Origin: a virus
Virus record (IMG/VR): IMGVR_UViG_3300037483_000443
Location: 1-64,000 of that record
Length of the DNA stretch: 64,000 bases
Direction: 5' to 3' (one strand)
The notes below the pieces were generated by a model. That model was not told where the DNA came from. It saw only the letters and a program-made list of their open reading frames with translations, and searched no databases. Positions 23,314 through 46,624 of the stretch are shown here, one piece after another (position 1 is the first letter of the stretch; every line of letters starts with the position of its first letter). The position numbers and the translations under genes are program-made.

Positions 23314-23547
23314 ATGGCAACTACAAATCTACTTACAGAGATGAAATTAAGAGCTGCTCAAAAGAGCACAGGAAGAACTCACTCTGAAGAATCAAAGAAA
23401 GTGATGAGAGAAAAAAGGCTTCAAAGAACAATTCAACCTTGGAGTGAAAAGAATCATTCCGAAGAAACTAAACAAAAAATAGCAGAAGGCCAAAGACTAG
23501 CTTGGGAGAAAAGAAGAATTCTCAAGAATAAAGGTGTATCACTATGA
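23314..23547 (+). CDS. NUMOD3-only mini protein (homing endonuclease remnant)
   Basis: Two NUMOD3-like units (GRTHSEESKKVMRE, NHSEETKQKI), no nuclease domain; own TAAATA at 23281. Confidence 0.6.
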   Translation: MATTNLLTEMKLRAAQKSTGRTHSEESKKVMREKRLQRTIQPWSEKNHSEETKQKIAEGQRLAWEKRRILKNKGVSL

Positions 23548-26500
23548 GTACAACGTCATTATTAGCAGTAGCAGAATCTTGGGAAAAGGTCTATAAGGCA
23601 TTTCAATCTATAAATTTTACCGCTTATGACTATAACGCCGTCAAGCAGTCTCTCATAGATTATCTGAAGCTCCAATACCCAGAGAACTTCAATGACTACA
23701 TCGAGTCTTCGCAACTAATCGCTCTCGTTGAAACGTTTGCATACGTTGCTGAATTGCTAGCTTATCGCGTTGACCTCTCGGTTCATGAGAGCATGATGCC
23801 GACAGCAACTAGAAAGCAAAGCATTCTGCGTCTTGCAAAACTCATATCTTATTCTTCCTCACGAAATCTTCCACTGAGAGGACTAGTAAAGATCAATTCT
23901 ATTTCAATCTCAGAGAACTTTACTGACTCACAGGGAAATTCTCTGTCAAATCGAGTTATAAATTGGAATGACCAGAACAACACTCTTTGGAGAGAACAAT
24001 TCTTCACCGCAATTGACAAGGTGATGACTCAAAGTTATGGAAACCCATACAAGTCATTTCAGATTGACAACACGATCTTTCAACAGTATGAGATTCGAAA
24101 TGTTCTTGAAACAGAGAGCATCGGTAGTGCGTTTCAAAACGGAGTTCTTAAAACTTCAACGACGGTAAATGGTACGAGCTTACCGTTTGAGTTGGTTTCG
24201 GCTGATCTTGATCAGTCAGGCGTCTTTGAGCGATCACCTAATCCCAATGCTTATTTCTCGTTCATTTACGGAGATGATGGATTTGGTGACGCATCTGACA
24301 CAACCGGGTTCATGATGTTCACTAAGCAGGGAGTTTTGCAAAAACTCCCATTCATTTTTGACATCAATCTTCCTAATCGCACTCTTGACGTTAACATCCC
24401 AAACATCAATGATTCTGACGTTTGGATTCAACAGGTTGATTCCCGTGGAATCATCCAGAGCAATTGGGAACAAGTACCAAATGTGGCTGGTGTAAATCTC
24501 ATCTTCAACAATGTTCAAACGATGAACAAGTATGAAGTTGAAACCTTAGAGAATGATCAAATTAGAATTATCTTTGGTGACGGGGATTTTGCTGCAATGC
24601 CCACTGGAATTTTCAACATCTGGGTTCGTTCATCCACTTCCGGGGGATTGACGGTACCTAAGACGTTGATCTCTAATCAAGCTGTTACCTTCAGCTATAC
24701 GTCTCGCACAGGTACGGTTGAAAGTTGTACGTTGACTTATTCACTTGTTGGTGCGCTTCAAAATTCTGCACCAACCGAAAGTGTGTCTCACATTAAGAAC
24801 GTTGCACCGTCCGTATACTATACACAAGATCGTATGGTCAATGGCCAGGATTACAATTCTTATCTATTACAAGACCCAACGATTCTTCGTCTCAATGCAA
24901 TCAATCGTACCTTTGCTGGACAGCCAAAGTACATCAATTGGAACGACGCATCTGGATCTTATCAGAACGTCAAGATCTTTGGTAATGATCTTCGTATTTA
25001 CTATGACATCGGATCGCTTACACAATCATCGACGATCTCAGAACGATCTCTCATAGATGACGTTATCGAGCCGGAATTGTCGATTGCTGGTATCAGCAAT
25101 CTGTTGATTTACGCAACTTACAAGACACCTCTTCAACTTACATATACGGCACCGTCAGGACCAGTTACAATAGACGTCCATCCTTACTTTCGGCCTCGTA
25201 CAAAGTTCATAGAAGATGTTACTCAGTTGATCAACAACATCACTATACAAGAGAAGACCGAGATCCAAGGCATCATAGACCGTCACTGGTATGGCGAAGC
25301 ACAAACGACAGTTCAGCTTGATTCTAATCTCTCTGACGTCTCAAGCAATCCAAAGTCAATATACTATGTTGTCAACAATGATACCGATCAACGAATTTGG
25401 CCTTCTACTGTAAAGTGTGTAGTTCAGGATTCTACTACGGGACTGTATAGTCTAATTTCAACCCCAAACGGGACTTCTGGAATCCAAGAAACTGTCATCA
25501 GAGATCGTAGATTTGCAATCACGTATACACCAACCCGCCCGTTTGCGTCTACATTGCAGATCGGCGACCCAGGAACTCTTGATAGTGGGTTCCCGACCTC
25601 CAACGTTCTAGCTTACACTGACGTCAACCAAACACTGGCTACAGAAGACGTATACACGATTGAATTTACTGACAAAGTTGGATCTTTTACTGTTCATAGT
25701 TCAACGCATGGAAATCGCACAGCTGGAAAAATTGGTACCAATTACACCGATGGTATCTTTAGCTTTATCATCGGTCCTAGTACCGCAGTTTCTGTACCCG
25801 GTGATGCATTTGTTGTCTCAATAAATCTAGACAACACTGGTCACTACGTACCTAACGTGCTGACGACCAATTTGACGGGTCGATTTAACGTAATAGACAG
25901 CACCGTTCTTACTGGAAACGCCGAGCAGCTTGAATATAATCCAGCTGATCCCGTTGCATCTTGGATATTCATTATCACTAGGACAGATGATGTAAATGCC
26001 AACACGTTATACTGGACGATGACCAGACGCGATTTCAGTTTGGTCATGGAAAGTTCAACGACAAAGTTCTGGTACAATCAGAACATGACGATCATCGACC
26101 CTACTACACAACTACCTGTAGTAGACATGATCAGGTTGTTGAAGTCAAATCTTAATGCGGCTAGATCTGCAGCAATAGGGACAGATCATATCTACAATAT
26201 AGTTGCCGACGTTAAGTATAAGAACGGTGAAGTCAACTTCAATGCTCTTGAAGTTGCTCCGGCTGATTCTCACTTGAACATTACTACAGCAGTTTCTGGT
26301 ACAGCTACAGATTCTTTGCAGTTTTTGAGTTTTGTCGGTGATAACGATTACGTCTACTTTTCAATTGACTCTAGAACTGGAAACTATATCCCAGTTAACT
26401 CCACTACATATCTATCATCACTAACGTACACAAACAACGTGTCATCAGATGGTCTTTATGCTCGTCGTATCGGCAGAGATAATCTTGATTTTCTATGGCA

Positions 26501-27092
26501 GCATTTTACTCCGTTAGATAATCTAATTGATCCATCTCCTTCAAACATCATAGATGTTTACGTCTTGACTAGCGGATACTATTCACAGATCCTAGAGTAT
26601 GTCAATGGTGTTATGGTGACGGAACCCAAGCCACCTTCTTCTCTTGAGTTGCGTAACACGTATAGAAGTCTATTACAGAATAAGATGATCTCTGACTCGG
26701 TGATCATGCACAGCGGCAGTGTTAAGCTTTTGTTTGGAAGTTTAGCAATCCCAGAGTTGAGAACGAAATTTAAGGTAGTTTTATCACCGTCGGCTACCTT
26801 GACCGGTGATCAAGTACGTGCAAGCGTACTTGCAACTATTAATTCCTACTTCACCATCGATAACTGGGACTTTGGTCAGAGCTTCTATGCTACTGAACTT
26901 TGCGCTGTAATTCACCAAAAACTATTTTCCGAAATTTCATCTGTCGTGATGGTTCCTGAGTTCCCGACGAATTATTTTGGAGATCTGTTCTTCCTCAGAA
27001 GTAGTCCTAATGAAGTTTTCATTTCATGTGCAACGATCGATAATATTGAGATTATCACTAGCATTGACCGGATGACGATGAAACAGAAGTAA
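23544..27092 (+). CDS. Baseplate wedge protein (gp6-like)
   Basis: FTAYDY...YPENFNDYIESS...SILRLAKLISY; IIFGDG; QDRMVNGQDY; WDFGQSFY. Confidence 0.85.
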   Translation: MSTTSLLAVAESWEKVYKAFQSINFTAYDYNAVKQSLIDYLKLQYPENFNDYIESSQLIALVETFAYVAELLAYRVDLSVHESMMPTATRKQSILRLAKLISYSSSRNLPLRGLVKINSISISENFTDSQGNSLSNRVINWNDQNNTLWREQFFTAIDKVMTQSYGNPYKSFQIDNTIFQQYEIRNVLETESIGSAFQNGVLKTSTTVNGTSLPFELVSADLDQSGVFERSPNPNAYFSFIYGDDGFGDASDTTGFMMFTKQGVLQKLPFIFDINLPNRTLDVNIPNINDSDVWIQQVDSRGIIQSNWEQVPNVAGVNLIFNNVQTMNKYEVETLENDQIRIIFGDGDFAAMPTGIFNIWVRSSTSGGLTVPKTLISNQAVTFSYTSRTGTVESCTLTYSLVGALQNSAPTESVSHIKNVAPSVYYTQDRMVNGQDYNSYLLQDPTILRLNAINRTFAGQPKYINWNDASGSYQNVKIFGNDLRIYYDIGSLTQSSTISERSLIDDVIEPELSIAGISNLLIYATYKTPLQLTYTAPSGPVTIDVHPYFRPRTKFIEDVTQLINNITIQEKTEIQGIIDRHWYGEAQTTVQLDSNLSDVSSNPKSIYYVVNNDTDQRIWPSTVKCVVQDSTTGLYSLISTPNGTSGIQETVIRDRRFAITYTPTRPFASTLQIGDPGTLDSGFPTSNVLAYTDVNQTLATEDVYTIEFTDKVGSFTVHSSTHGNRTAGKIGTNYTDGIFSFIIGPSTAVSVPGDAFVVSINLDNTGHYVPNVLTTNLTGRFNVIDSTVLTGNAEQLEYNPADPVASWIFIITRTDDVNANTLYWTMTRRDFSLVMESSTTKFWYNQNMTIIDPTTQLPVVDMIRLLKSNLNAARSAAIGTDHIYNIVADVKYKNGEVNFNALEVAPADSHLNITTAVSGTATDSLQFLSFVGDNDYVYFSIDSRTGNYIPVNSTTYLSSLTYTNNVSSDGLYARRIGRDNLDFLWQHFTPLDNLIDPSPSNIIDVYVLTSGYYSQILEYVNGVMVTEPKPPSSLELRNTYRSLLQNKMISDSVIMHSGSVKLLFGSLAIPELRTKFKVVLSPSATLTGDQVRASVLATINSYFTIDNWDFGQSFYATELCAVIHQKLFSEISSVVMVPEFPTNYFGDLFFLRSSPNEVFISCATIDNIEIITSIDRMTMKQK

Positions 27093-27145: not shown

Positions 27146-30100
27146 ATGGCAAACTCTCTAGATCTTACTTCATTACTACCAAACCGAAACCGCGATCGTA
27201 CCATCGACGGTTTGCTTAAGAATCTTTTCAACCGATTCTTAAGCAAACCTGATACCGTTCCTCTCTATGGATTTGTCGGTGATCAATCTGAGCTTTCTCC
27301 AGGTGAAGTTCAGATCACAGAAACAGATCTTGAAAGACAGATCAATCAACTTGAACCCTTTATCTTTTCTCAGCATGCTTCTGAGAAGATAGTTACATCA
27401 TGGTTTGATCTCATCCAAAAGCTTGTTGTATTGGGAGTAGACTATACAACGTTGAACCAGTGGTTCAACAGTAAAAGCTATAACTTTGTCCCTCCGATTG
27501 ACCTGGATAAGTTCTGTAACTTTCAGAATTACTTCTGGATAGGTAATTGGTTCCTGACAAAACCGGCACTAGATTACACTTCTCTTGGATTTGCAACCGT
27601 TTCTACGTATCACGTAGCACCATTTGCCGCTTGGAATAATTCTACTCTAAGTCCTGAGTATTACGTGATTGCCAGAGGGCCACTTCAAACAAATGGCGCT
27701 CCGATAGCTCCTCAGCCTACGTTTTCTAATTCTAGTTCATGGTCTGATTGGTCTTACGGCAACCTTTGGGTTCATCGAGCCGATCTCATTAACTTTGCAA
27801 ATCAGCATAAGATTGATGTATCTATCTCTACTGCAGTACAAGCTACTCGACCGATCATAGAATATTCAGCGTATGTAGGATTAAACGTTGCGCAGACTTC
27901 TGCGGGTGTACCAACGGATGCTGCGTTGGGAACTGGGGTTCCTCAAGCTAAACAGTTCATGAACCAACTGCCGTTGTTCGATCTCTATTACTATGACAAG
28001 ATTCATGCTGGAGTAACTAGTTCAATTTTCTACTACACGGAAGCCCAAGATCAGCCGGTTGACAGTGTGATAGGGCGTCGCCTGACTGTAGATGCAAACG
28101 GTGATTTTATTTTCGGTCACTCCTTGGTGAATTCTATCGACAATTCACTATATTTCTATAAACTGTATGACACCGTAACTACAGTAGCAGGCTCTCACTT
28201 CAAGATGCTAACTATTTGGAGAGAAGGACCTGATGATGCGATAAAATACGTGAAATACGATACATCTGGTTCGCTCATCGACCTTGACAAATTTGTCAAT
28301 TTTTCTAATTACTTCTGGGTTGGTATTGATGCTACACCACAGCCGTCTTATAACCCAACTGGATTGCCCGAGTATTACACGATCGCAAAGGGTGGTACTT
28401 CTGACTGGTCTGTCTACAATTACTGGACTCACGTTAGTGCTTTAAATCGCGCGGATTTGACAAGATATGTACAAGCAACAAAGCCAATCATTGAGTTTAA
28501 TGTAGCACTTGAAAGTCAATTAGTTGTCTATGGGAAAACTGTTCGCGCTGAAATGCCGATTTTCAAGCACTTTGTGTTTGATCAACCAACACAGTCATTC
28601 CAACAGATTCCTCGAGACAATGACAATGATGCATACCTGGCTGGTCATTTGTTTGCACGTCTCTCAGATCTTCCTGCTAGTACACAAGCCGCGGTTACGA
28701 CAAACCCAGAAATCTACACGAACAATTGCTTTAGCTATAACAATGAGATCTACATACAGGGATTGTTCAACGGATCTTACTATGCGTTTGACACCTCATT
28801 GAATTTTTATGGATACAAGTCTCGCCTGGTATCTTTCAACGGTGAGGGTAACGGTAGTGCTACGATCAATGCTCTTAGCTCAACGGCATACCCAGAACTT
28901 ATCGTTCTGACTTATAATGGAACTTCATTTAATGCCGTTGGTAGCGTTTCTGGAGATAATGGATTTGTTGACGTGGGGGTAGAAACTTCTATCCAAGGCA
29001 TCACGATCAAAATTGACGTAGGAAGCACACCTTACGCGATTGGTGACGTTTATACCTTTGAGATTACGAGCTACGTGTTCTCTCCAGTCAACATTTACGT
29101 ATACGTCAACGGAGTATATAGAACTCTAAACTCTCCTATTCAGATTACTACTCAAGTTCAAAACACAACCGTTGTTGAAACTGACGTATCCCGCCAAGAT
29201 GGTGTTTGGACACCTCCCCCACAACTTGAATGGAACATTCTAAATGAGACAAGATCTACTGTCAGTGAAGGGGATCTCTACTATCATTTAACTTCTATCA
29301 TCGCAGCACAGCCTGGACTTATTGGATCTGCTACTGGAACGAACAACTGGAGAACATTATCACCGGATGTAGGACTTGGTGGTAAGATCAAACAGTTTGA
29401 TGGGAATACTGCACTACTTATTTCAATGTTGATGCAGAGAGGAATTTCTACCCTTTCTCTGATTGAGTTCGCCCGTGAGTCTTACCAAGCATTTTCCACC
29501 TCAATCAGAACATTTGTTCAAGACATTTTGCCTGACATGATCGCGGCAGGGCAAATCTCCCTTCCGAAGAATGTACCGGCTGGTATCTTCGTTAATGGGC
29601 AATCTTACGTTATCACTGAGATCGGAACTACTGACTTTACGGCGATAGGAGCTTCTAGTAACTCCATCGGTCTATCGTTTATTGCTACCGGTCCTGGAGA
29701 TGGTACTGGCTCTGCTGACGAAAACTCAATTGATTCTGAAATTGTTTCTTCTTTCATGACGTACTTCAGCCGTCAATCTCCGCTGGTTCTCTCAACGTCG
29801 ACTCCAGTAGATGACACTATATCTAGCCCCTTCTATGATTCGACTGCTGAGATCTTCAACTTGGTAATTACTCTTCCGTACATGGGGTTGACACCTAAAG
29901 CACTGCCTCAGAAGATCTTTGATGCTGATTTGAATCTAGAGATGCTTGTTCACCATGATGGTCACCGAACCAAACTAGAATCTAATCCAACCGACCTTGC
30001 TAAAAAGTTAGCACAAAAACTATACGTGCGCTCTCCAGGAGAATCTACTCCTGGATTTATCGCGGCTGATTATCCAGTACGCCCGTACGCCGGACAATTC

Positions 30101-33100
30101 TGGTTCAATACGATAACTGGAAAGCTCTTTATCTTTGATGCTGTTTCTGACTCTGGAGAATTACTATCTGGAGTAAAGTATGGAGCTTATTCTTATGATC
30201 GTTCTACTAATCAAGTTTGGCAGACAGACGGACAAGATTGGACTCTATTAACTGATTTACAGTCAGATCGTTTACCTTGGACTGAAGTTAAGCTTGATCT
30301 CATCATCAACAATCTAGAGTTAAATCTTGAAACCGAATTGTTTGATGAATGTCCTACGTTGAATCCTCGTGTAGACGAAGTAGGTCTTCAAGCTTACTCA
30401 AACTTTTCATCAATGATGGATGCTGAATTTCAAAGCTTTGGAATTCGACACAATATCAATGACATTTACTCTAACCCACAAATTTATGCGTTCTGGACGA
30501 AAACTTTAGAGTACCTGTATTCACTACAAAAGACATACTTCAAGCTTGACCCGTTGACCTATGTTCGAGAATCTTGGGGAGTTAAACATCTTACCGTGGA
30601 TGAATACACTCTTAATCCACAGCTCGGACGTAAAGAAGCCCCACCCGACTTTACTTTACACGGTGAAGTTTTAGATGAATTAGCTCAATCATCTTGGGTT
30701 TCCGCTTCACTTGTTAATTTGCCTCCATTCCACCTTACTCCAGGGCAGTCATACATCATCACGTCTGTCGGTACTACAGACTGGACTCTGTGGGGAGCAT
30801 ACGCAAATGAAGTTGGTGTTCAATTTACAGTACCGCTAAATGCACAGATCGGTCCTGGATCTGGGACTGGAACCGCTTCGGTTCTTCCTCCCCTCTTCAC
30901 TCGTACTTACTATTTCAAGTGCGCAAATCGTACCGACGGTATGTTCTATACTTACCTAGATGATGAAGATGCAGCTCGTGAATTGACAGAACCCCTGACA
31001 AACGGTTATCTACCGTACTACGGATATACACCATTCTCAGCTCCACCTCTAAAAGCTGATCCTGTATTCAGTGAAGCGATTGGAAACGACTTAACGTATC
31101 GTGACAAATATCTTGATGTCACGATAACTGCTACTCGTCGTGGCTTTTTCTGGGGAGATATATTCAAGATAACCGTGACTTCTGACGGTGTGATTTCCGT
31201 TGAGACTATTCCTCAACAATATTTCAAAGCAGAGGGATTCAATCAACTCTTTGTCCAATATGGAAGGATCTACGGTGAAGACGCATCGCTTTCGATCAAC
31301 ACAACTCTTCTAAAAGATTGGTCAGTAAAGTTAGGATATCGCTTCGGTGGAATGGTAAACACTGATACCTTAACAGTCAAAACTCAAGACACAATCGATT
31401 CGTCTGGTTATAACGTCTACTTGAAAGAAAATCTCTTTAACAGTAGCTCATGGATAAATGCGCTTCGAGTACAAGTTGTACAAAAGGGCGCTACAGAGAT
31501 GCTAAACGGTGTTTCTGTACCGGTGATCGGATTCGGTGGATCTCCAGGGGAAGATTGGATCTTTAGGATAGATAACTACAATAAGAATCGTACTTCTCTA
31601 TCTTGGTATAATTATGATCTAGTGGGAGATCAACATAAGTTCATCGCGCTAGATGGACTTGCTACTGATTACTATGAATGGGCCCGTTATACCAGCAAGA
31701 CAACGATCTCAACTCTGAATGCTCCATTCTTGATCACTGGCATCCAGAATCTGATCAACTTCGTTTTCGGATACGCTGATAAACTAGAAGCTGACGGTTG
31801 GAGATTTAATGATCCCAATAACCCACGAATTGATCCAACAACCGGACTTCACGTTGGTTATCAGTCACTGGTAGAGTCATTTATCGTTCAACAGTTTTCT
31901 GGAGTTAATGCTGGATCGGTATTTGTCTTCAATCCATTTGGACAAAAAGTTTGGTTTGAAACTTCTCACGGTTTTGTGTCAAACGTTAATAACGTGCTGG
32001 GATTTGAGACCGAAACCGTCAACGCGATCCTTGATCAAAACGCAAAGCAAGTTTCAAAGAATGACATTCGTGTTTTCCGTCAAGATGACATTACAGAGAT
32101 GGTTTTTGACACTCCCGTTTATACTCTGCATCTGTTGACGTCTGAATTTGAGCACGTCGTTCTTTTTGAAAATAAAGCTACTAACACATTGTTGATCTAT
32201 GATCCTTTCTTGGGACAACGTGTTAGTCGAATTTTCATGAGTGGGCAGAAACAAGCCAATTTCTCCGGGCAAATCGACTTTGGTGGTCACTTTTTGCTTG
32301 GGAACGAGATGAAAAAGAACATCGAGAGTTCGGTGAATAGCATCATTAATCTCTATGACACTACCGTCAAAGACGTTGATTCTCAAATTCTTGATCGCTC
32401 AAGATCATTACTGGGATACCAAAAAAAGTCATACTTTGACGTAAGAGGAACTACAGATACGTCTCAGTTTAGATTTTGGCAAGGGATGATCGCCAATAAG
32501 GGTACTAACTTCTCCGTAGATGCTTTCATTAACTCGGCGTCTTATCACGACGCAATCTTGGACGAATACTGGGCTTACAAAGTAGCTGAATATGGAGATT
32601 CTCGTTCGATCATAAAGACAGAACTTTTGGTACAGCCAGAGGATTGTATAGGTGAGTATGCTAATTTCATCTTCTTAGAATCGGATGACATTTCTACTCA
32701 GTCTACTGATTCAGCAAACTTGTATGACAACGTTGTTTATGACTACAACGGTTTTAGTGCAAGCTCGCAGCTTGACGTTACCGGACTTATCCCAGTAAGC
32801 GCAACCGATGAAACACGTTGGTTCTCTTATTCTGATTTGAATACGTTATCATATCTTGAAGCTCAACCTATTGCGACGATGTTTTTACCGTCTGCAAATC
32901 AAATTGCAGTAGGTAGTTGCTTTGTCATAACGGATTCAAACGGTCGTCCTGTTAGAGCAGATAGATTTGAGATTATCAACTTCAACTCGACATCAGCGAG
33001 CACGATCATCTTCCGTGAAGCCGGTGATTATATCGTTGGTACAAATCCACCTGATTTTTCTTTACCAAGATTTGAACGATTGAATCAATCTGTGATCAAG

Positions 33101-35716
33101 ATTCTTGATCTAGGTGGCGATCTTACTCAGGCTGTGAATTTGATACCAGGACTTGCGTATAACATCATCTCTCAAGGAACTTCAACTGACTTTACCTTGA
33201 TCGGGGCTGCAAACAACAACGTTGGTACTTCATTTGTTGCTACAGGCCCAGGGTATGGTAACGGTGTTGCGACGATCAGTCCTATCGTTCTAGGCGTAAC
33301 TGCTATAATTGTAGGGCAAACTTACACCATCACTACTCTTGGAAACACTGACTTTACACTAATCGGTGCAGCCGCCAACTTGGTCGGTGTAACGTTTACC
33401 GCGGTAAACGTTGGGGTAGGAACTGGTACGGTAACTGCAGTTTCGGCGTTAACTAGTGCAGGTTCATTCGTTATTGGTGTAACATACACCATCAACACTA
33501 CAGGTGTATTAACTGACTTTACGCAAGTTGGTGCACCAAACAACAACGTTGGAACAGAGTTTATCGCGACCGCCGCTGGGACTGGTAGTGGAACCGCAGC
33601 GACGGTAGTAGTTACAGGGTCTCTACAAGTGGTTGCATATGGCCCGGCTTCAAGTTGGTACAGCCCAAACTTGCTTTATGATTATGTTAACAACGTTCTA
33701 GTTAAGAATGACATCATTTGGTGGGATCCGGGTAGGGGAATTCACCACCCACAAGCAGCAGCATCTATCTCTTATGACTTAGATTCCGATCCTGCAATCT
33801 ATACCAGTTCTCTCCTAAGTGATGCAAAGGTATCAAACTTGAAACCCTGGGGATCTGCTCAGGTAGGTAAGATCTGGTGGAATACCGAGAACTTGCACTA
33901 CAAACCATATTCTGATGATAAACAAGTTCCTCAGGTAAAAGATAGAATTGCCTCATGGGGAGCTTTATCTGACATGTCAAGCATCGAGATCTATGAGTGG
34001 GTTAAGTCACAAGTACCTCCGAGTTCTGCAGTTCTTGGACAAAGCATGAATGGCGAGCCTGCGATTACCAACACTTTGACTCGTACACGTACATGGTGGC
34101 AGCGTCCGGTAGCTTGGAGATATTCTTCAAATCCTGATATCACCCCAAGGGCGTTCTTGCAGTATCAACCATCTAGACTGCAGATTACCTACTTTAATGG
34201 TGTCGGTCAAGCAACCCTGAAGACGGGAAGCTTTGACACACTTGGAATCATGATTGGTACTAAGATCTCAGGTACAGAATATTCAAGTACTACTAAACTT
34301 GATAATGTCTTGTCAAAGATCTTTGGTCTTGCGATCGTTTCTTCAACGTCGACAACCGTAGTAGGAACCACTGGAGGGTACGCAGATGGCCCTGGATTCA
34401 CGAACAATGCTACGTTCAGTAACTTCCAAGCGGTTCTTGATCAGAATGTTCTGAAGTACAGAACTACTTCTCTTGGTCAATATGCCCTGAGTACTTCTGC
34501 TGACTTGGCAACTGTTTCAGTGGGATCTCTCAACGTTGGAACTGACTATACAATCACTTCGATTGGACAAACGTCTCCAACGACAGCTGGATACCTTGTC
34601 ATTGGAAAGACCTACGTTATCGTTTCGATAGGATCGACCACAAACTTTATGTTGGTTGGGGCTTCTGCAAACACACCCGGTGTAGAATTTGTGGCGACCG
34701 GAATAAGTAGCGGTGATGGTACTGCAATGCTTGTGACCAATAATGTAAATGCCACGGCTTTGATTCCGGGCTTCACTTACGTGATCACAAATACCGGTAC
34801 GACAGATTTTACCGCTGTTGGGGCTTCTGCAAATACAAACGGAACGGTGTTCATTGCTACAGCTGCTACGACCGGATCTGGTACTTGTTCTACCGCAAAT
34901 ACCGACTTTACGACAGTAGGTGCTATCACCGTGTCACCGGGGTCATTTGTGTCTGGGCAGACGTATGTTATCAAGGCAGCTTCTACCGGTGGTACTTCAA
35001 CGAACTTCACGTTGATTGGAGCACCAAATAACACTCCCGGAACAACGTTCACTGCTTCTTTCATCGGTGCCGATCCAACGACAGGCACAGGAAGAGCTTA
35101 CAACGCTACGTTTACAGCTTCAAGTACATCTACCACTGGTACTGGAACAGCGCAGTACTCGGTCAATACATATCTTTCCTTGACCCATGTGAGCTCCGGT
35201 GAATCGCAGAAATTGAAAGTGATCAATTCTACTCGCTCCCAGGGCCAAACTCTTTCCTATAACTTTGACGCGTTGGGTGTCCAAGTAAGTGCGACACTGG
35301 GAGTAAACTTACCGCATGCTTCAACGATTGTCAGTGGACTTGTAAGCGGAAATGCTGACATCAATCTACGTAGTTCTGTGACAGTGAAAATCCCGATGAT
35401 CTTTAATGATGGGACAACTACTTTTACAGAATTTTTCTCTAATACTGACACTCTATCTCAGCTTGGCTGGATAGCTTGGAATGATCCAACGACGAACCCG
35501 AATTTAGGTAATCCTCCACCTAAAAATCTTTATGAACCGCTGGTCGGAGATTGGGTTCAGGTGGGGTCAAATCTTCATGCGGTGTCTGATGATATTGTTC
35601 TTCGTATCTCAGATCCATGGACTTGGTTTGATGGCTTAGATTACACTCCATACAAATCTTCATGGACTGCCTGGACTAAGATGTCTCCTACGATTATTGA
35701 AGCATACAACCTGTAA
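27146..35716 (+). CDS. Very large baseplate/virion structural protein (2856 aa)
   Basis: Follows gp6; duplicated DLDKF-x-NF-x-NYFW domain; EYWAYKVAEYG motif; nine copies of the Thr/Gly module; late promoter at 27122 and SD. Confidence 0.75.
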   Translation: MANSLDLTSLLPNRNRDRTIDGLLKNLFNRFLSKPDTVPLYGFVGDQSELSPGEVQITETDLERQINQLEPFIFSQHASEKIVTSWFDLIQKLVVLGVDYTTLNQWFNSKSYNFVPPIDLDKFCNFQNYFWIGNWFLTKPALDYTSLGFATVSTYHVAPFAAWNNSTLSPEYYVIARGPLQTNGAPIAPQPTFSNSSSWSDWSYGNLWVHRADLINFANQHKIDVSISTAVQATRPIIEYSAYVGLNVAQTSAGVPTDAALGTGVPQAKQFMNQLPLFDLYYYDKIHAGVTSSIFYYTEAQDQPVDSVIGRRLTVDANGDFIFGHSLVNSIDNSLYFYKLYDTVTTVAGSHFKMLTIWREGPDDAIKYVKYDTSGSLIDLDKFVNFSNYFWVGIDATPQPSYNPTGLPEYYTIAKGGTSDWSVYNYWTHVSALNRADLTRYVQATKPIIEFNVALESQLVVYGKTVRAEMPIFKHFVFDQPTQSFQQIPRDNDNDAYLAGHLFARLSDLPASTQAAVTTNPEIYTNNCFSYNNEIYIQGLFNGSYYAFDTSLNFYGYKSRLVSFNGEGNGSATINALSSTAYPELIVLTYNGTSFNAVGSVSGDNGFVDVGVETSIQGITIKIDVGSTPYAIGDVYTFEITSYVFSPVNIYVYVNGVYRTLNSPIQITTQVQNTTVVETDVSRQDGVWTPPPQLEWNILNETRSTVSEGDLYYHLTSIIAAQPGLIGSATGTNNWRTLSPDVGLGGKIKQFDGNTALLISMLMQRGISTLSLIEFARESYQAFSTSIRTFVQDILPDMIAAGQISLPKNVPAGIFVNGQSYVITEIGTTDFTAIGASSNSIGLSFIATGPGDGTGSADENSIDSEIVSSFMTYFSRQSPLVLSTSTPVDDTISSPFYDSTAEIFNLVITLPYMGLTPKALPQKIFDADLNLEMLVHHDGHRTKLESNPTDLAKKLAQKLYVRSPGESTPGFIAADYPVRPYAGQFWFNTITGKLFIFDAVSDSGELLSGVKYGAYSYDRSTNQVWQTDGQDWTLLTDLQSDRLPWTEVKLDLIINNLELNLETELFDECPTLNPRVDEVGLQAYSNFSSMMDAEFQSFGIRHNINDIYSNPQIYAFWTKTLEYLYSLQKTYFKLDPLTYVRESWGVKHLTVDEYTLNPQLGRKEAPPDFTLHGEVLDELAQSSWVSASLVNLPPFHLTPGQSYIITSVGTTDWTLWGAYANEVGVQFTVPLNAQIGPGSGTGTASVLPPLFTRTYYFKCANRTDGMFYTYLDDEDAARELTEPLTNGYLPYYGYTPFSAPPLKADPVFSEAIGNDLTYRDKYLDVTITATRRGFFWGDIFKITVTSDGVISVETIPQQYFKAEGFNQLFVQYGRIYGEDASLSINTTLLKDWSVKLGYRFGGMVNTDTLTVKTQDTIDSSGYNVYLKENLFNSSSWINALRVQVVQKGATEMLNGVSVPVIGFGGSPGEDWIFRIDNYNKNRTSLSWYNYDLVGDQHKFIALDGLATDYYEWARYTSKTTISTLNAPFLITGIQNLINFVFGYADKLEADGWRFNDPNNPRIDPTTGLHVGYQSLVESFIVQQFSGVNAGSVFVFNPFGQKVWFETSHGFVSNVNNVLGFETETVNAILDQNAKQVSKNDIRVFRQDDITEMVFDTPVYTLHLLTSEFEHVVLFENKATNTLLIYDPFLGQRVSRIFMSGQKQANFSGQIDFGGHFLLGNEMKKNIESSVNSIINLYDTTVKDVDSQILDRSRSLLGYQKKSYFDVRGTTDTSQFRFWQGMIANKGTNFSVDAFINSASYHDAILDEYWAYKVAEYGDSRSIIKTELLVQPEDCIGEYANFIFLESDDISTQSTDSANLYDNVVYDYNGFSASSQLDVTGLIPVSATDETRWFSYSDLNTLSYLEAQPIATMFLPSANQIAVGSCFVITDSNGRPVRADRFEIINFNSTSASTIIFREAGDYIVGTNPPDFSLPRFERLNQSVIKILDLGGDLTQAVNLIPGLAYNIISQGTSTDFTLIGAANNNVGTSFVATGPGYGNGVATISPIVLGVTAIIVGQTYTITTLGNTDFTLIGAAANLVGVTFTAVNVGVGTGTVTAVSALTSAGSFVIGVTYTINTTGVLTDFTQVGAPNNNVGTEFIATAAGTGSGTAATVVVTGSLQVVAYGPASSWYSPNLLYDYVNNVLVKNDIIWWDPGRGIHHPQAAASISYDLDSDPAIYTSSLLSDAKVSNLKPWGSAQVGKIWWNTENLHYKPYSDDKQVPQVKDRIASWGALSDMSSIEIYEWVKSQVPPSSAVLGQSMNGEPAITNTLTRTRTWWQRPVAWRYSSNPDITPRAFLQYQPSRLQITYFNGVGQATLKTGSFDTLGIMIGTKISGTEYSSTTKLDNVLSKIFGLAIVSSTSTTVVGTTGGYADGPGFTNNATFSNFQAVLDQNVLKYRTTSLGQYALSTSADLATVSVGSLNVGTDYTITSIGQTSPTTAGYLVIGKTYVIVSIGSTTNFMLVGASANTPGVEFVATGISSGDGTAMLVTNNVNATALIPGFTYVITNTGTTDFTAVGASANTNGTVFIATAATTGSGTCSTANTDFTTVGAITVSPGSFVSGQTYVIKAASTGGTSTNFTLIGAPNNTPGTTFTASFIGADPTTGTGRAYNATFTASSTSTTGTGTAQYSVNTYLSLTHVSSGESQKLKVINSTRSQGQTLSYNFDALGVQVSATLGVNLPHASTIVSGLVSGNADINLRSSVTVKIPMIFNDGTTTFTEFFSNTDTLSQLGWIAWNDPTTNPNLGNPPPKNLYEPLVGDWVQVGSNLHAVSDDIVLRISDPWTWFDGLDYTPYKSSWTAWTKMSPTIIEAYNL

Positions 35717-38658: not shown

Positions 38659-41600
38659 ATGGCTTCTAACATCGATCCAACAAGACCAACGCATGTCAAC
38701 CCTCAAACTGAGGACGTGCGTCTTAATTTTCAGCATGCTCATGATGAAATCAATGTTCTTCAAGAACAAGTAGCTGGAATTTTGATAGGTCCTACTGGCC
38801 CCACTGGTCCCACTGGTCCTACTGGCCCCACTGGACCTACTGGCCCCACTGGTCCTACCGGTCCTACTGGCCCCACTGGTCCCACTGGTCCTACTGGCCC
38901 TTCAGTGACAGGTCCTATCGGTCCTACCGGGTCAAATAGTGTCTTAACTGAAGTTGCTGGATTGGAAGATCTCCCAGTTCCGGGTACTCTTCCGAACTTC
39001 AATGAATATCTAGTCGGTCCTAGAGCTGGTACAAACGATTCTGTACTCGTTGTCAAGGGGTCTAGTGCGGCTTGGGAATTTCCTCAGTATGTGGCAGAGA
39101 TTCAATTTAACGGATCCTCGGTCGGTACTGCAACAGCAGGCGGAACTATCAATACTGTAGTAAGCACTTCTTCAGATTTTACTTCTCTTACTGATACTGC
39201 TAATCCGGTAGGAGTCGGAACACACATCATCCAATTCTTAACTGGTGCTCTTGCAGGTCTTCCTCGATTTGTGACTAGCGTAGTCGGTTCGACGGTAACA
39301 GCAGAAACCCCTTGGGCTTCTGCGCCTTCGGTAGGTGACACTTTCAAGATTTACAAGAGAGATCTTGTGCTCATGAATTCGTTGGAGCAATTTAGCTTTT
39401 CTAAGACGCTGAAACAAAACACAGGTATCAATTATCTGGCCCGTCTAGTTAGAGCTGGTACTAGAGCAGTTCGTGAATATAGTGACATCACAGACGGTGG
39501 AACTGCCGGATTGACTCCAGGGACGATCTCTGAGGCGGCAACTACGTTCAATGCCCAGTTTACGTTGTCTCCTACACCTACAAACGTCTTATCATGTACA
39601 ACAACCGTTGGATCAGACATCATTCTCACTGCTAATACTTCATCGGTATCTATCGGAGATAACATAGCAGGGGTGGGTATCCCTGTAAATTCATGGGTAA
39701 TTGCTATCAATGCTGGAGTAAGCTTTACTATCAACAATTTAGCATCTGCTAACGGTACTGTAACTCTTACAAGTACTCGTTATTGGGTTCGCGATCGTTC
39801 TAATGCAGGTGATCACTCTTATCTTCGTAGAATCAATGAAAGCTACGAAGAAGAAATTTGGTTTTCTGACAACACCGTCGCTGCCACTGGTGTTTTGTGG
39901 CAGCTACGCAGCCGCATCCAATTGATTACAGGTCAGAATCACCTGTATGGTATCTTGACTGTTACACAAGACCCATCTACTCAATTTGAACTCGCGACCA
40001 AGGGATACGTAGATGCTACAGCCCAGGGATTAAACATCAAAGATCCGGTGCACTGTGCAGCAAACGGAGTCAATGTTGTTTTGTCTGGTGTTCAAACTAT
40101 CGACGGATTCTTGGGTACTGCTGGGGTAACCCGTGTACTGCTTGCATATCAAGCAGTACCTTCTGAGAACGGAATTTGGATCATGCAGACAGGTGCATGG
40201 ACCCGCTCTACCGATACAAACAACCCTGGAGTGAATTCTGCACCAACCGCAACGAACATGATTCGAGGATATACTTTTGTCGCAAACGGTAATAACACGA
40301 CCGGTACTTCGTGGGTCATGACTACTAACCCATATACTCTTGATACTACTGCGCTGGTATGGACTCAGTTCTTTGCAGCGGGATCAATTACCGCGTCACA
40401 GGGGCTGCAGAAGATCGGGTCTGATATTCAAACTAAACTCAACCCTTCTGATTTGCGTGTCAACGGAACTACTGGCGATCTTGAAATTCAACCCGCAATT
40501 ACCGGACACACGTACGACGGACTTACTCTTACTTCTAATGCAGTAGGATTTAGCATCTCCGGTGGTTCAACTGCAAAAAATTTAGTTCTCAACAACAGTC
40601 TAAGTTTTTCTGGAACCGATGGTTCTACTTTGAACATTGGGGGTGGTGGTACCTTAGGAACAGCCGCGTACATAAATTTCGTAAACGCAGGTCGAGGTGT
40701 TGTAGATTTTAATACATCGACTAGACCAACTGGAGTTTACGCAGTTGAAGGTGCAGGAAGTAACGGACCGGGCCTGGCATACCCTAACTTAATTCACTGC
40801 ATGAATTCTAACGACTTAGCTTTCCAGATTGCTGGTGGTTACACTACCGATAAAATGTACTTTAGAGGTGGCTATAATCTTACGACGACACCCGGATGGA
40901 CCACGTGGAGAGAAATCATTCACTCTGGCAACATCTCAAGTCAGTCAGTATACTCATCTACCCTGGTTAATAGCGTATTAGATGGTGGAATCGTTAATAA
41001 CCAATCGGGTGCATCTGGATGGATCGGTAGAATCATATCAAAGAATGTTGCATCCGATTCTTCTGTCGCGATAGGAACTTGCAACGGCCTACCTTCCATA
41101 GCATCACACAACTATGCTCTTACTGCCTGGAAAGATCTGTATGTTAATACAGTTGATGGTTCAGGTGGAGGAACGATACGGATGCCTGGCGGGATCGTCA
41201 TTACACCTGGCACGATCAATGCTACAAGTTTCGTAGGAACTGCTTCGAATGCTACTACGTTTATTGGGAACTGGACCAATTGGGTATCATATCGCTCTCA
41301 AGCGGTTGCGAACATGCTGGGTTGGAAGGCATACGGCAACAATCATGTGATCTTTGACGCCTCCGCAGGCTCGTCCCCCACCGGCTCGGCGGTGAACAAC
41401 ACCAACGCCCAAATTCCGTGGGCTGGATCTTATCCGACGTTAATGGGTTGGAACGGGGTAAACACCTTTGGTGTCAGAGTAGACAGCGCGAGGGTGGCGG
41501 ACAACGGCATCTCCAAGTTCATATCCACGATACTGACGGTTCCGACCGCGGTCGCACAGGCACAATCTGTAGCTCATGGACTTGGTGCAGTTCCAGCGTT

Positions 41601-41847
41601 AGTAAGATTAGTAGCTGTATGTAAAGTCGCTGGATATGGATATGCCGTTGGAGATGAGGCTGAAGTTCTATGTGGTGCGTATGACAATGGCAACGTTCAG
41701 CTCAAACCGTGGGCAAGTGCAACCTACGTCGGTTGGAGTTCAGGCTCAAATATGATGATAATAAATCGAAGCTTAGCCCAAGGTAATGCGCTGAATATAA
41801 TTAACCTCGGCGTGTACTTCGGTCTAAGGGTATATGCTTACTTATAA
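38659..41847 (+). CDS. Tail fibre protein with collagen-like repeat
   Basis: (GPT)12; ATKGYVD...GLNIKDPV...QTIDG...RVLL...NGIW module; variable C-terminal tip. Confidence 0.8.
38788..38895 (+). repeat. Collagen-like (GPT)x12 coding tandem repeat
   Basis: 12 units of GGNCCNACN. Confidence 0.95.
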
Positions 41848-42079: not shown

Positions 42080-44452
42080 ATGAATATAAATGATGCCCTC
42101 ACCCAAGCGTTGATCGATTACATCAACGATGTCAAGCCGTTTCACACTAAGTTTCGTGAAACAGCTTCACAGATCTTTTTTGAAGATCAGTTTAATGTAA
42201 ATGTGAGTGAAAACTATATCGTTGAGTCACACTTCAAGAATTCTTGGGGACGAGACGATCTCGGAGGTTTTGGTCTACAGAAGCTCTCAGAAGGAGATCT
42301 TGATGATGCCACATACACTCTTCCAGCAACGGTCTTCTCAAATTTTAGTCTCAATGACGGGATAAACGTAGGTCAGACTCCTGTAGGTAACGATCCAGCT
42401 ACACTCAACGCAGACGGTAGTGGGTTTCCGTTTATTGATTCTGGTGATGGAATTCCAGATTCGGAAACTCCCTGGGAAGTTACTGCTGGAAGCTTCATAG
42501 TCGGTAACTCATATACGATCGTTTCTATCGGATCTACTGATTTTTCTCTCATCGGCGCAACAGTAGTCACTGCTGGATCTCTCAGCTATGGCAGATCATA
42601 CATGATTCTTGCTGCGAATACAACGGATTTTACGCTTGTTGGATCGGATTCTAATACAGCTGGTACAATCTTCCAGGCAACCGGGCATGGAGTAGGTACT
42701 GGAACCGTCTATGAATTAAGATTCACGGCAACCGGCCCTGGAACGGGAACTGGTAAAGCTGCGCTGAATACTTTTTCCCATCAAATGGGAAGCAACCAGA
42801 TTCCAGTTGAAGCAAAAATTTTATCAGTGGTCTACGGTAACACATCCTTTTCAATTACATTTGACGCAAGTTACGAAGCCACCTATGGTTTCGACCCAAA
42901 TCTGATCAGAGTTACCGTCAATGATCAAGAATATGACGTTGCAGATACAGCGTTCTTTGTTAAAACGAGCACTCCCGTACCAGGGTACACAAATGCAGCT
43001 ACGATCACTATGACGATTCCCGGTGGATTGATCGCCCCAGCAAATCGTGTAACGGTGACATACTTGAGTACAGGGCGGTTCTTAGTGCCGTTTCACCAAG
43101 GATCCCGCGTTCGAGTTGACGGAAGCTTACAACAATTGGGTGTTCATTACGTAATTGATAAAACCAGAACATTCATTCAATTTCTACCAAACCGTCATCC
43201 TCGACTCTCACATCATGTAGACATAAATCTTATGAAGTCTGATAAGTTGTTCATCTGTAAGCATGATCCGTTTGCCTACAGGGGATTTCAAGATACGTTC
43301 ATAGTAACATCCGTTTCAACTCCAGGTTTTGTTAGTGCAGGTTCACTTGTTATAGGTTTGGGATATACGATCATGACGGTTGGAACTACTGACTTTACCC
43401 AAATTGGAGCGGCATCGAATACCGTTGGATTGACTTTTACTGCTACCGGAATAGGTGCAGGGACTGGTGCTGCTGCTCCTGCTTCTATGACAAATTTGAG
43501 AATGTCTACCAAAGAGATTCTTGCTGGTTTTTCTTACATCATCATCTCGGCTGACACTGCTGACTTGACGATGATCGGAGCTAACGATAATCTACCAGGA
43601 ACATCTTTTACTGCATCTGCAAATGGAAACATTCTTGTTGGATCTGGCTCGGTAGTCCCTAGTGTCACCTGTAGTGTTCAGTTCAATAACGCAGACCCTC
43701 TCACTCACAAGGCTCAACTAACGAACGTCATCACGACAGCATCTGCTGGAACTGTATGGACCTTAACAGCCATCGGTCCGTGGACTTTTCAAGTACAGAA
43801 AACTTCTCCCCTAAGCTCAACCACGACCAAAGCTTACTTCAAAGTACCGTATGGTGATGGAGAGCTGTCTTTTACGTTAGATCGAACCTGGGTAAACTAT
43901 TACGTTAGTGATAATGTAGCTTATGTCTCCTACGACATTCAACAAGATGTGAATAGCTACTACACATATGATGAGTCACTGCTCGGCACTGGGGATGGAT
44001 ACGGAGCAGAAGAATTCTTCCCAAATCTTGACTCTGTTACCGAACATGGAGTTGTGTCTGATCCAGTTCCACCGATACACTCACCGGTTCGATTCAATCA
44101 GTTTGGGATCGTTAGTAAAACTTCTGACGGAAGTTACAAGTTCATATTTGACACGATTCCTCCTCGTTATACATACGTAGAATTCAAAGTAGAAAAGGCT
44201 GATCAATACAACCCATCGGTTAGAACTGCTATCACTGAAGATGTGAAGCTCTACGTGACCTATGATTCTATCACTGAAGGTGGAATCGTGGCCGGAAATA
44301 CTTACGTTATCAACTCTGTCGGGTTCTCTGATTTTACGGCAATCGGCGCCCCATCAAACACGGTAGGAGTGATGTTTTTGGCTTTATTAGATGGAAACCC
44401 ATTTGGGTCAGGAACTGTTTCGAGAATAGAAACAGTTCCTCTTACTCCTTAA
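42080..44452 (+). CDS. Virion structural protein with five Thr/Gly modules
   Basis: LIDYINDVKPFHTKFR N-terminus as seen in jumbo-phage baseplate proteins; repeats visible. Confidence 0.7.
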   Translation: MNINDALTQALIDYINDVKPFHTKFRETASQIFFEDQFNVNVSENYIVESHFKNSWGRDDLGGFGLQKLSEGDLDDATYTLPATVFSNFSLNDGINVGQTPVGNDPATLNADGSGFPFIDSGDGIPDSETPWEVTAGSFIVGNSYTIVSIGSTDFSLIGATVVTAGSLSYGRSYMILAANTTDFTLVGSDSNTAGTIFQATGHGVGTGTVYELRFTATGPGTGTGKAALNTFSHQMGSNQIPVEAKILSVVYGNTSFSITFDASYEATYGFDPNLIRVTVNDQEYDVADTAFFVKTSTPVPGYTNAATITMTIPGGLIAPANRVTVTYLSTGRFLVPFHQGSRVRVDGSLQQLGVHYVIDKTRTFIQFLPNRHPRLSHHVDINLMKSDKLFICKHDPFAYRGFQDTFIVTSVSTPGFVSAGSLVIGLGYTIMTVGTTDFTQIGAASNTVGLTFTATGIGAGTGAAAPASMTNLRMSTKEILAGFSYIIISADTADLTMIGANDNLPGTSFTASANGNILVGSGSVVPSVTCSVQFNNADPLTHKAQLTNVITTASAGTVWTLTAIGPWTFQVQKTSPLSSTTTKAYFKVPYGDGELSFTLDRTWVNYYVSDNVAYVSYDIQQDVNSYYTYDESLLGTGDGYGAEEFFPNLDSVTEHGVVSDPVPPIHSPVRFNQFGIVSKTSDGSYKFIFDTIPPRYTYVEFKVEKADQYNPSVRTAITEDVKLYVTYDSITEGGIVAGNTYVINSVGFSDFTAIGAPSNTVGVMFLALLDGNPFGSGTVSRIETVPLTP

Positions 44453-45316: not shown

Positions 45317-46624
45317 ATGACCTACATTTTGACATGGAGTGATTCTTCACTGAAGCCAACCCCGATCACGTTAGCAAACAACGTGATCAGTTCAAACGCG
45401 CTTTCTATCACGTTAACAGGAAAGGGAGCTGTTAACTGGGGATTTCCTCTTCAAGAAGATTTGATGCACATGTTAGAAAACTTTGCATCAAACGGCACTG
45501 CACCACAGTATGCAACTCTCGGTCAGCTGTGGTATAATGCTGCAACAAAGCATCTAAACATCAACACAGCTGTTGGTTGGGCCGAGCTTGCATATCGTCG
45601 CGTTGATTCTTCTTCTCCCCCATCTCCCCCGTCTTATTCTGGAGATACGTGGTTTGACACTACAAATCACTTCTTTAACGTATATGATTCAGCTGGAGCT
45701 GGTTCTTGGAATCGCTTGGCCTTTACTACTCAAGTTCAAGGAAACTATTCAGTAGAACAACCTGGAAGCATAGCGAATGCTTACATCGTTGTGCTAAACC
45801 CAACGATCGCTTCATATGCCAATAACTTTACCGGATCGTTCAAGGTAAGTCACGCAAATACCGGTGCATGTACTATCAATGTTGGAGGTGGAGCTGTTCC
45901 ACTAAGAAACCCCAATGGAGGAGCGTTAGTTAACGGTGATCTTCTAGCTGGACAGATAGTTTCTTATGTTTATGTGCTCAATGACAATGCAGCCTACGTC
46001 GTTTCGGTTACTCAAAGTCAAACTGATACCCGATATGCAAAGTTGGCTGGTCTCAGCACTCAAACTTTCAACGTTGCTACAGCAACGGTTGGAACCCACG
46101 CGATCAATCTTACTCAGGCAAATTCTCTTTATGCTCCGATCATCGCTAACAGCAATTTAGTTCCTGTTGGAACTGTGATCGATTTTGCCGGGCCTAATGC
46201 ACCAGATACAACTTATCTTGTGTGCCCTGCTTCTGCTGGGTCTGTTTCACCCCCTCAGTTGTTACAAATCTCTCAATATCCAGATTTATTTGCGGCGTTA
46301 GGGTACACTTATGGTGGTGTCGCTGGACAAACTTTTGGAATTCCTTGGTTTCCGACTGGTTTTCCATCTATCGCTGCAAACGCTGGTGGAGGCGCACCTG
46401 TAGGATCATCTTCTCACGGAATGCTGATGGAACACCACCACACTTACGGTTGGAGAGCATCTTTAGCAGCCCAATCTGGATCATCAACTCCATGTTGGGT
46501 CGGTGATTCTACACAAAATACTTCAGGATACATTGATGCACACGGCCGAGTGGGTACTAGTCAAGTTGACAATATGCCGGCAGGCATGTATATGTTGAAG
46601 TGTATTAAAGCAAAGAAAGTGTAA
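45317..46624 (+). CDS. Short tail fibre / tail-collar-domain protein
   Basis: HMLENFAS...GQLWYN N-terminal module; VPVGTVIDFAG...YPDLFAALGYTYGG collar domain; HHH motif; CIKA end. Confidence 0.75.
   Translation: MTYILTWSDSSLKPTPITLANNVISSNALSITLTGKGAVNWGFPLQEDLMHMLENFASNGTAPQYATLGQLWYNAATKHLNINTAVGWAELAYRRVDSSSPPSPPSYSGDTWFDTTNHFFNVYDSAGAGSWNRLAFTTQVQGNYSVEQPGSIANAYIVVLNPTIASYANNFTGSFKVSHANTGACTINVGGGAVPLRNPNGGALVNGDLLAGQIVSYVYVLNDNAAYVVSVTQSQTDTRYAKLAGLSTQTFNVATATVGTHAINLTQANSLYAPIIANSNLVPVGTVIDFAGPNAPDTTYLVCPASAGSVSPPQLLQISQYPDLFAALGYTYGGVAGQTFGIPWFPTGFPSIAANAGGGAPVGSSSHGMLMEHHHTYGWRASLAAQSGSSTPCWVGDSTQNTSGYIDAHGRVGTSQVDNMPAGMYMLKCIKAKKV

Follow-up and report, generated by a model that had tools for sequence, protein, structure and literature searches.

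Can a small protein domain be inserted into a loop of another copy of itself, more than once and within a single reading frame? Positions 34511-35152 of a viral DNA stretch of 64,000 nucleotides (the window; positions 1 to 64,000 of IMG/VR record IMGVR_UViG_3300037483_000443) raise this question. They lie in one frame near the C-terminus of the 2856-aa product of gene A (27146-35716, + strand), an open reading frame for a virion structural protein. A first-pass annotation had described the interval as a repeat module interrupted by whole copies of itself, and had proposed that the module spreads by in-frame insertion into loops, including its own. The nested pattern was confirmed, and the interpretation given to it was supported, since the two refuting tests proposed with it were carried out and neither overturned it; that the interval is nested and is to be read as nested self-insertion very probably holds. 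Direct observation covers the order of N-half, whole copy and C-half, the recurrence of this order, the gain and loss of the array among homologues, and a confidently predicted fold for one nested pair.

A nested array in gene A and nested pairs in genes B and C

The module was located with a regular-expression scan and then with a profile hidden Markov model (HMM) built from 13 clean copies. It has the consensus xxAGxFxxGxxYxIxxxGTTDFTLIGAxxNxVGxxFxATGxGxGTGTA, and the invariant residues of the 51-position model are G10, Y13, I15, G27, N31, G34 and F37. The window holds 15 contiguous copies scoring 34-79 bits each, eight in gene A, four in gene B (42080-44452, + strand) and three in gene C (46634-48802, + strand), together with one split outer copy in each of the three genes.

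The translation of 34511-35152 was as quoted in the first-pass annotation, and the HMM placed three module fragments around three whole copies in the order claimed (all on the + strand). The first piece of the outer copy (34511-34567) comprises strands 1-2 and ends at the G before TDFT; its partial match (34511-34573) covers model positions 3-23, scores 16.5 bits alone and is conserved in the orthologue P0003. Two whole copies follow in tandem within this outer loop (loop 1), at 34577-34732 (model positions 3-53, 69.4 bits) and 34739-34894 (positions 2-53, 65.9 bits). The outer copy then resumes with TDFTTVGA (34901-34924), which falls at positions 19-30 (match 34889-34924) and alone scores 11.2 bits over positions 21-28. 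After its GA, in loop 2, comes the third whole copy (34928-35104; 60.0 bits over 34928-35089), and the outer copy closes at 35105-35152 with strand 3, the Gly-rich tail and strand 4 (positions 38-52, match 35108-35155). The three outer fragments are complementary, collinear parts of the model; they align to it in register, with the invariant core residues retained.

Nesting had also been claimed for two other genes, and both cases proved real. The nested pair of gene B, which encodes a 790-aa protein, consists of an outer N-part (42479-42559), an inner copy (42560-42715) and an outer C-part (42719-42763), read by the HMM as positions 4-31 (35.1 bits), a full copy and positions 38-52. In gene C, which encodes a 722-aa protein, the corresponding segments lie at 46790-46876, 46880-47032 and 47045-47098 and match positions 2-30 (19.7 bits), a full copy and positions 36-53. 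In all three genes an inner copy stands directly after (I/V)GA, as described before.

Rejoined outer pieces align as single modules

When the inner copies were excised, the rejoined outer pieces aligned as one full-span module in each of genes A, B and C. The rejoined scores were 22.8 bits for gene A (positions 2-49), 42.6 bits for gene B and 33.6 bits for gene C (spans 2-49 or 2-50), so that both additional cases scored above gene A. None of 2000 within-piece shuffles matched the rejoined score in any of the three genes, the shuffle maximum for gene A being 15.9 bits. Only the native order of the pieces gave a full-span match; for gene A, none of the other orders among the 6 did so. Random sets of pieces drawn from the same three proteins spanned at least 45 positions in 2, 3 and 7 of 2000 trials. 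For reference, intact modules score 55-84 bits and genuine modules from which the xxNxxG loop was removed score 33-57 bits. The rejoined copies of genes B and C lie within the latter range, which indicates that they behave like real loop-deleted modules.

The same treatment was applied to split copies in other proteins. The orthologous outer copy of P0003 rejoined to 32.6 bits, a score that 0 of 1000 shuffles reached. P0016, an unrelated protein, carries two such sites. At site 1 two tandem copies interrupt the outer copy at the G|TDFT junction, as in gene A, and the outer copy rejoined to 60.9 bits (0/1000 shuffles), inside the range of intact modules; at site 2, where the split follows GA, the rejoined score was 27.5 bits (0/1000 shuffles).

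Nested units recur among module-bearing proteins

The recurrence of the order was surveyed in 165 proteins, made up of the 150 best profile matches and the homologues of gene A. Half-module HMMs at a threshold of at least 8 bits found 595 N-halves and 437 C-halves, and found none in locally shuffled versions of the same proteins. A simple bracket parse at 8 bits was dropped after five of the proteins with unpaired N-halves had been read. The unpaired N-halves were mostly contiguous modules with diverged tails, and the raw parse was therefore replaced by a conditional test on 448 contiguous modules, in which an open N-half was one that directly preceded a module and had no C-half of its own. 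An extra C-half followed within 25 aa after 13 of the 15 modules preceded by an open N-half, compared to 11 of the 433 others (Fisher p = 6e-17).

Clean N|NC|C units numbered 13, in 11 proteins. The N-parts that stand open directly before a new module ended most often just after GA, with 25 instances at model positions 26-30. A second group of breakpoints lay after strand 3, and this group also includes plain tandem copies without a tail. By inspection, a possible third insertion site, past strand 3 (xxFxA) and ahead of the Gly-rich tail, was seen in P0026 (423-538), P0059 (310-431) and P0006 (2230-2380), where the tail resumes after a whole inserted copy.

The array is gained and lost within a conserved scaffold

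Homologues of gene A encode 2850-3180 aa. P0003 is 58% identical over the C-terminal region and likewise holds an outer copy in three pieces, with two inner copies and then one between them; conservation of the outer pieces equals that of the inner copies (54% over the region). Across an alignment of 13 sequences, gain or loss of the array (aa 2456-2669) was seen within a conserved scaffold. Its occupancy among the 12 homologues was 93% in P0003, 34-35% in two and at most 4% in nine, and its flanks were 95-100% occupied in all 12. BLAST joined the flanks directly in P0004, P0005 and P0009. Presence also varied among the homologues at the other module sites of gene A.

In P0003, the orthologue of the copy at 34739-34894 (residues ~2848-2889) has lost 9 residues, from the last part of the TDFT turn through the xxN loop, and scores 14.4 bits. 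This indicates that individual copies of an array can decay.

The copies in the window share 68-75% DNA identity over 44 nt, which indicates that the architecture is old and has been maintained. Recent duplication at the DNA level was considered and rejected, as the copies are only 68-75% alike and the two related nested units, in genes A and C, have diverged considerably. The third inner copy of gene A bears the variant tail FTASFIGADPTTGTGRAY, a variant also present in gene C, P0003 and P0046. One nested unit with this kind of tail (FTASF(V/I)G.DPT) is thus common to all four, and this suggests that nested units were inherited and moved as units.

Predicted structure and co-variation of the module

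The first-pass annotation had looked to structure prediction to tell a nested domain from a continuous solenoid. The outcome was favorable for the nested pair of gene B and of low confidence for the exact region in gene A, to which we return below. AlphaFold2 was run on the gene B pair (42470-42775) with an alignment of 79 rows, of which 12 were natural nested units and 67 single modules, and gave a predicted local distance difference test score (pLDDT) of 96.8 and a predicted template modeling score (pTM) of 0.86. In this model the outer copy has strands at residues 3-5 and 14-19, a helix at 25-28 and strands at 84-86 and 96-99, and the inner copy has strands at 32-34 and 43-48, a helix at 54-57 and strands at 67-69 and 79-82, with the same strand order, length and spacing. 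The inner copy begins one residue past the outer GA, and its end lies one residue short of outer strand 3; by itself it is predicted to be compact and unlike a solenoid coil. The outer halves were predicted with a pLDDT of 92-97. Each of the three insertion sites falls in a loop that separates predicted strands.

Co-variation was examined in 442 unique contiguous modules. Strands 2 and 3 gave an antiparallel ladder (pairs 13-37, 12-38, 14-36 and 10-39), and the start of the module was coupled to its tail (17-48 and 7-49). Together these couplings indicate that the N-half and the C-half belong to one sheet. From the secondary structure, the confidence of the model and the co-variation, we infer that the outer halves probably pack against each other and that the termini of the module are probably close together.

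VIA-align took residues 30-84 of the gene B model as one compact domain, a small barrel with 47 residues aligned. Its best match was FeoA (3e19_A; Z 4.0, root-mean-square deviation 2.1 Å over 47 residues, model residues 30-83), followed by IdeR (4o6j_A; Z 3.8). Among 48,161 chains, 31 reached a Z of at least 2 and none a Z of at least 5, and no fold could be named with confidence, since a Z below 8 may reflect merely a common arrangement; Foldseek returned no match to PDB structures at E ≤0.001. The nearest solved folds to the inner copy are SH3-like small beta barrels (FeoA, the C-terminal domain of DtxR/IdeR, ribosomal L2 and KOW). We take this likeness as a lead on topology only, given the low Z (4.0 at best) and the lack of sequence similarity.

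Alternative readings of the arrays

Several results weigh against nested self-insertion, and they are considered here together with the readings that they might favor. Gene A is the weakest of the three cases: its rejoined score lies below the 33-57 bits of loop-deleted genuine modules, and the last of its outer pieces is Thr/Gly/Ser-rich and weak, scoring –2.7 bits in context and 7.2 bits alone. AlphaFold2 on 34463-35200, with a two-row alignment (window and P0003), gave a mean pLDDT of 36.8 with no residue at 70 or above, an uninformative outcome that favors neither side. In the gene B pair, contact between the outer halves is inferred and not directly seen. The 165-protein sample is biased toward multi-copy proteins, and detection of the halves was uneven, with 176 N-halves left without a detected C-half at the 8-bit threshold. 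A third level of nesting in gene C was non-significant, and P0018, described below, departs from strict pairing of halves.

Three related trials may be recorded here. A 14-row alignment of the exact region of gene A was discarded after MAFFT was found to have shifted P0003 by one repeat. A complex prediction of the outer N-half of gene B (30 aa) with the 30 aa that begin at its outer C-half scored 0.01 against a mark of 0.32, the fold of the partner being uncertain, and has no weight in either direction. The third level in gene C was rejected as a candidate, as its closing tail, NCGSGTA, adds 3.3 bits and 109 of 1000 random 10-mers equal that gain.

The gene A results could mean that the nesting is historical only. 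In that case the insertions would have destroyed the host copy, and what is left of it would be unfolded linkers or remnants in decay, surrounding three inner copies that still function. The scores of the pieces alone (16.5, 11.2 and 7.2 bits), a rejoined score under the loop-deleted range, the absence of a confident fold for the exact region and the 9 residues missing from the second inner copy of P0003, which demonstrate that decay occurs in the array, are all in keeping with such a loss. However, the invariant core residues persist in register in the outer pieces of gene A, conservation of these pieces between P0002 and P0003 is close to that of the region as a whole, and those of P0003 rejoin to 32.6 bits. 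A host copy with the same G|TDFT split and two inserts, that of P0016, rejoins to a score equal to that of intact modules, and the outer halves of the gene B pair were themselves predicted at a pLDDT of 92-97. We consider loss of the host copy unlikely, and believe that the split outer copy of gene A probably folds as one domain.

The behavior of P0018 (4359 aa) bears on a second alternative. In this protein a long run of N-halves is followed by a long run of C-halves, and the units within each run are very alike. By pattern we counted ~19 N-cores and ~21 C-cores, numbers that are close but unequal. The array fits deep nesting and, as far as its sequence pattern goes, may reach ~17 levels. P0018, P0167 and P0168 are metagenome proteins of 4323-4388 aa that are otherwise identical; what sets them apart is one N-half unit of 36 aa and one of 29 aa, with the indels at residues ~1960-2046 and the C-half array unchanged. 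These N-half-only indels are the principal result at odds with a strict insertion-only model. Either strict N/C pairing is not always kept, or metagenome assemblies miscount the repeats. The indels of whole N-halves also suggest that half-unit slippage is a second route to deep nesting, beside insertion of whole modules.

The same observations could be taken to mean that N-halves (~29 aa) and C-halves (~17 aa) are two repeat types that stack separately in a continuous fiber or solenoid, with the apparent nesting a by-product of adjacent arrays. The two long runs of P0018, the likeness of the units within each run, as tandem amplification would give, and the variation of N-half number by whole units while C-halves stay unchanged would all follow. 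This reading does not account for the co-variation, in which strand 2, from the N-half, pairs as an antiparallel ladder with strand 3, from the C-half, nor for the finding that extra C-halves occur nearly only after open N-halves (13/15 vs 11/433). The core counts of P0018 are close to each other, the inner copy of gene B aligns as a compact small barrel over 47 residues at 2.1 Å, though with a Z of just 4.0, and in each window case the whole copies are flanked by one N-half and one C-half, with no arrays of halves. Separately stacked repeat types thus appear very unlikely to us. That Thr/Gly-rich low-complexity sequence near real copies mimics module fragments by chance, as the composition and poor score of the last outer piece of gene A and the ease with which random 10-mers match the proposed outermost tail of gene C might suggest, is so improbable as to be negligible, because no shuffle in 2000 scored as high as the rejoined pieces, full-span alignments came from only 2-7 of 2000 random piece sets, shuffling the 165 proteins abolished every one of the 595 and 437 half-module matches, and the pattern recurs in unrelated proteins.

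A possible route to nested arrays

Under nested self-insertion, the ~50-aa unit would be an autonomous small beta domain of four strands and one short helical turn, whose first and last strands would leave the module side by side. With its end strands so placed, a whole copy could sit in a surface loop of another copy and leave the host unbroken, and we propose that this is what permits the nesting. At 34511-35152 the outer copy would thus be present in three pieces, with two tandem copies in the loop between strand 2 and TDFT and one further copy in the loop after GA, where it replaces xxNxxG. Four domains would then form a branched cluster that has no free linkers. Such arrays may have arisen by in-frame duplication and insertion, and may later have been expanded or contracted through half-unit slippage.

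As to function, we tentatively favor a rigid, extensible surface decoration or a weak adhesin on the tail, an assignment that we would place somewhat short of even odds. The bracket-like order of the halves could further form length-adjustable ‘zipper rods’, in which a stack of N-halves runs outward and an equal stack of C-halves runs back, through ~17 levels in P0018. Each level would then be one small barrel set in a loop of the level below, and half-unit slippage would alter the length of the rod between near-identical phages, as in the 29-aa and 36-aa steps of P0167 and P0168. We regard the rods as a doubtful proposal. If they do exist, they would be linker-free, branched or tunable appendages of a mode undescribed for virions.

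Relation to known systems

Recursive insertion of a domain into its own copies is a rare architecture that is already on record, mainly for one part of a polymerase. Two reports describe it for Si3 of the cyanobacterial RNA polymerase beta' subunit, in which HABAS/SBHM (sandwich-barrel hybrid motif) domains are inserted into copies of themselves (PMC11515920), and in which eight SBHMs, four of them assembled from distant parts of the chain, form a body 150 Å long (PMC10895346). A survey of 48,551 insertion events reports six-level nesting (PMC13114784). The phage module resembles Si3 in that a small beta domain is self-inserted over several levels and yields domains that are discontinuous in sequence; in Si3 the resulting body is elongated. 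Like other nested homotypic insertions, the phage arrays have the order host N-part, complete guest and host C-part, and the rejoined host is a complete copy.

The module differs from Si3 in several respects. It occurs in phage tail structural proteins, belongs to a different family that is without a Pfam or NCBIfam model, and is a smaller unit of ~50 aa. Its nesting recurs independently in many proteins and, in P0018, may reach ~17 levels. Structural comparison of the module with RNA polymerase beta' chains 6edt_D and 8syi_Z gave Z of 2.4 and 2.3 over 35-36 residues, and homology was not shown by these values. HABAS/SBHM corresponds to CATH 2.40.50.100, as named in PMC11515920, and it is to this fold that the Z of 2.3-2.4 refers.

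Accessory domains of another kind offer a second comparison. Immunoglobulin-like (Ig), fibronectin type III (FN3) and carbohydrate-binding (CBM) domains on phage structural proteins are small and beta, vary in number and position, and are present or absent among close homologues. The phage module resembles them in that it comes and goes within a conserved tail-protein scaffold. These accessory domains normally stand in tandem and are not self-nested.

The first-pass annotation knew of no description of recursive self-insertion in phage structural proteins, and our search of the literature agreed with it as far as phages are concerned, the process itself having been published for RNA polymerase. 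Nothing relevant emerged from searches for phage tail proteins with nested or discontinuous domains, supplementary files being outside their scope; those on the motif strings of the module returned no papers, and those combining ‘Russian doll’ with domain insertion returned general insertion papers only. What is new here is recursive self-insertion in phage tail proteins, as against the known case of Si3. It constitutes a second natural case, independent of Si3 and recurring in many proteins, and makes the module a system for asking which folds tolerate self-insertion and how, whether by insertion of whole modules or by half-unit slippage. There are practical consequences as well. Nested copies defeat ordinary domain callers, which report orphan half-matches, and they mislead multiple alignment, as the one-repeat shift of P0003 by MAFFT illustrates. 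If the family were named, many ‘hypothetical’ phage tail proteins would gain a partial annotation. A stable domain of ~50 aa that takes up its own copy in up to three candidate loops would also be an attractive scaffold for display or for rigid multi-domain rods.

Extent of the module family

A profile search of 1.84 billion representative proteins gave 4162 matches at E ≤0.001, 2050 at ≤1e-10 and 136 at ≤1e-30. Domain libraries did not name the module. In Pfam the best score for the 15 copies was YjbE at 16.5 bits, under the cut-off of 27.9 bits and thus sub-threshold noise, and none of the Ig, FN3 and CBM models matched. An NCBIfam scan gave nothing below E 0.17, PHROGs had no match for the 214-aa array region of gene A or for genes B and C, and the profile found a single chance-level match among PDB sequences (E 0.076).

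The company of the module points to phage tails. Beta_helix and Mtd_N co-occurred with it in 2 of 10 scanned module-bearing representatives, and relatives of the module proteins also carry baseplate wedge, a tailspike beta-helix, CBM_5_12 and other tail families. Among Atlas structural neighbors with a taxon record, 98-100% were viral, and the neighbor families included Baseplate_wedge, Phage-tail_3, pectate-lyase-like, T4-gp15, SU10 adaptor, Phage_tail_L and pb9. BFVD gave seven matches at E ≤0.001, six of them uncharacterized and one a YHYH-domain protein; six came from uncultured Caudovirales phages and one from Virus NIOZ-UU157. The best explanation is that the module represents a large family, unnamed in any library, that decorates tail and baseplate proteins of tailed phages.

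Two further full copies (72.1 and 68.6 bits) were seen in the same record outside the window, at 72826-73704 on the – strand, in a 529-aa open frame. The module is thus not confined to the three window genes.

Genome setting and other features

The source record is 135,654 bases long, with a CheckV completeness of 37%. By the baseplate wedge protein, its nearest cultured relatives are jumbo phages (Ralstonia phage RsoM2USA, 44.5%; Xanthomonas phages Xoo-sp13 and XacN1, ~40%), and we read the record as probably part of a giant myovirus. Gene A resembles phrog_10938, ‘virion structural protein’ (E = 1.5e-84). A Pfam scan found no family in the whole gene A protein and none in its 214-aa array region, megablast of gene A against 50,697 phage records gave no match, and tblastn of the nested pair against known phages found only three records (a b-glycanase, a virion structural protein and a phage stabilization protein). 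Upstream of gene A lie a baseplate hub-like gene and, immediately adjacent, the baseplate wedge gene (23544-27092; phrog_10646), and tail-fiber-like genes lie downstream. From these neighbors, the module proteins are presumably located on the virion.

Of the remaining contiguous copies on the + strand, gene A carries one at 29567-29722 (79.2 bits), at a site occupied in 3 of 12 homologues, one at 30716-30877 (73.9 bits) and three in tandem at 33119-33277, 33287-33439 and 33449-33604 (68.1, 64.5 and 67.5 bits). The HMM placed three in gene B, at 43328-43477, 43514-43651 and 44264-44419. In gene C it placed a copy without a tail at 46676-46789, directly ahead of the nested pair, and a contiguous copy at 47345-47500.

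Gene C has a neighboring paralogue at 45317-46624 (+ strand). The two proteins have in common a ~70-aa N-terminal domain (37% identity, E 8e-11), and only gene C carries the ~150-aa module array ahead of it; the paralogue aligns to gene C only from aa 164 on and is without the first ~150 aa that hold the array. Within the repeat-coding region of gene A, a 103-aa open frame runs on the – strand at 34777-35088, probably as a by-product of composition. One of the tail-fiber-like genes (38659-41847, + strand) encodes a 1062-aa protein with an N-terminal collagen-like run of 16 Gly-Pro-Thr triplets, through which it matches several tail fiber PHROGs.

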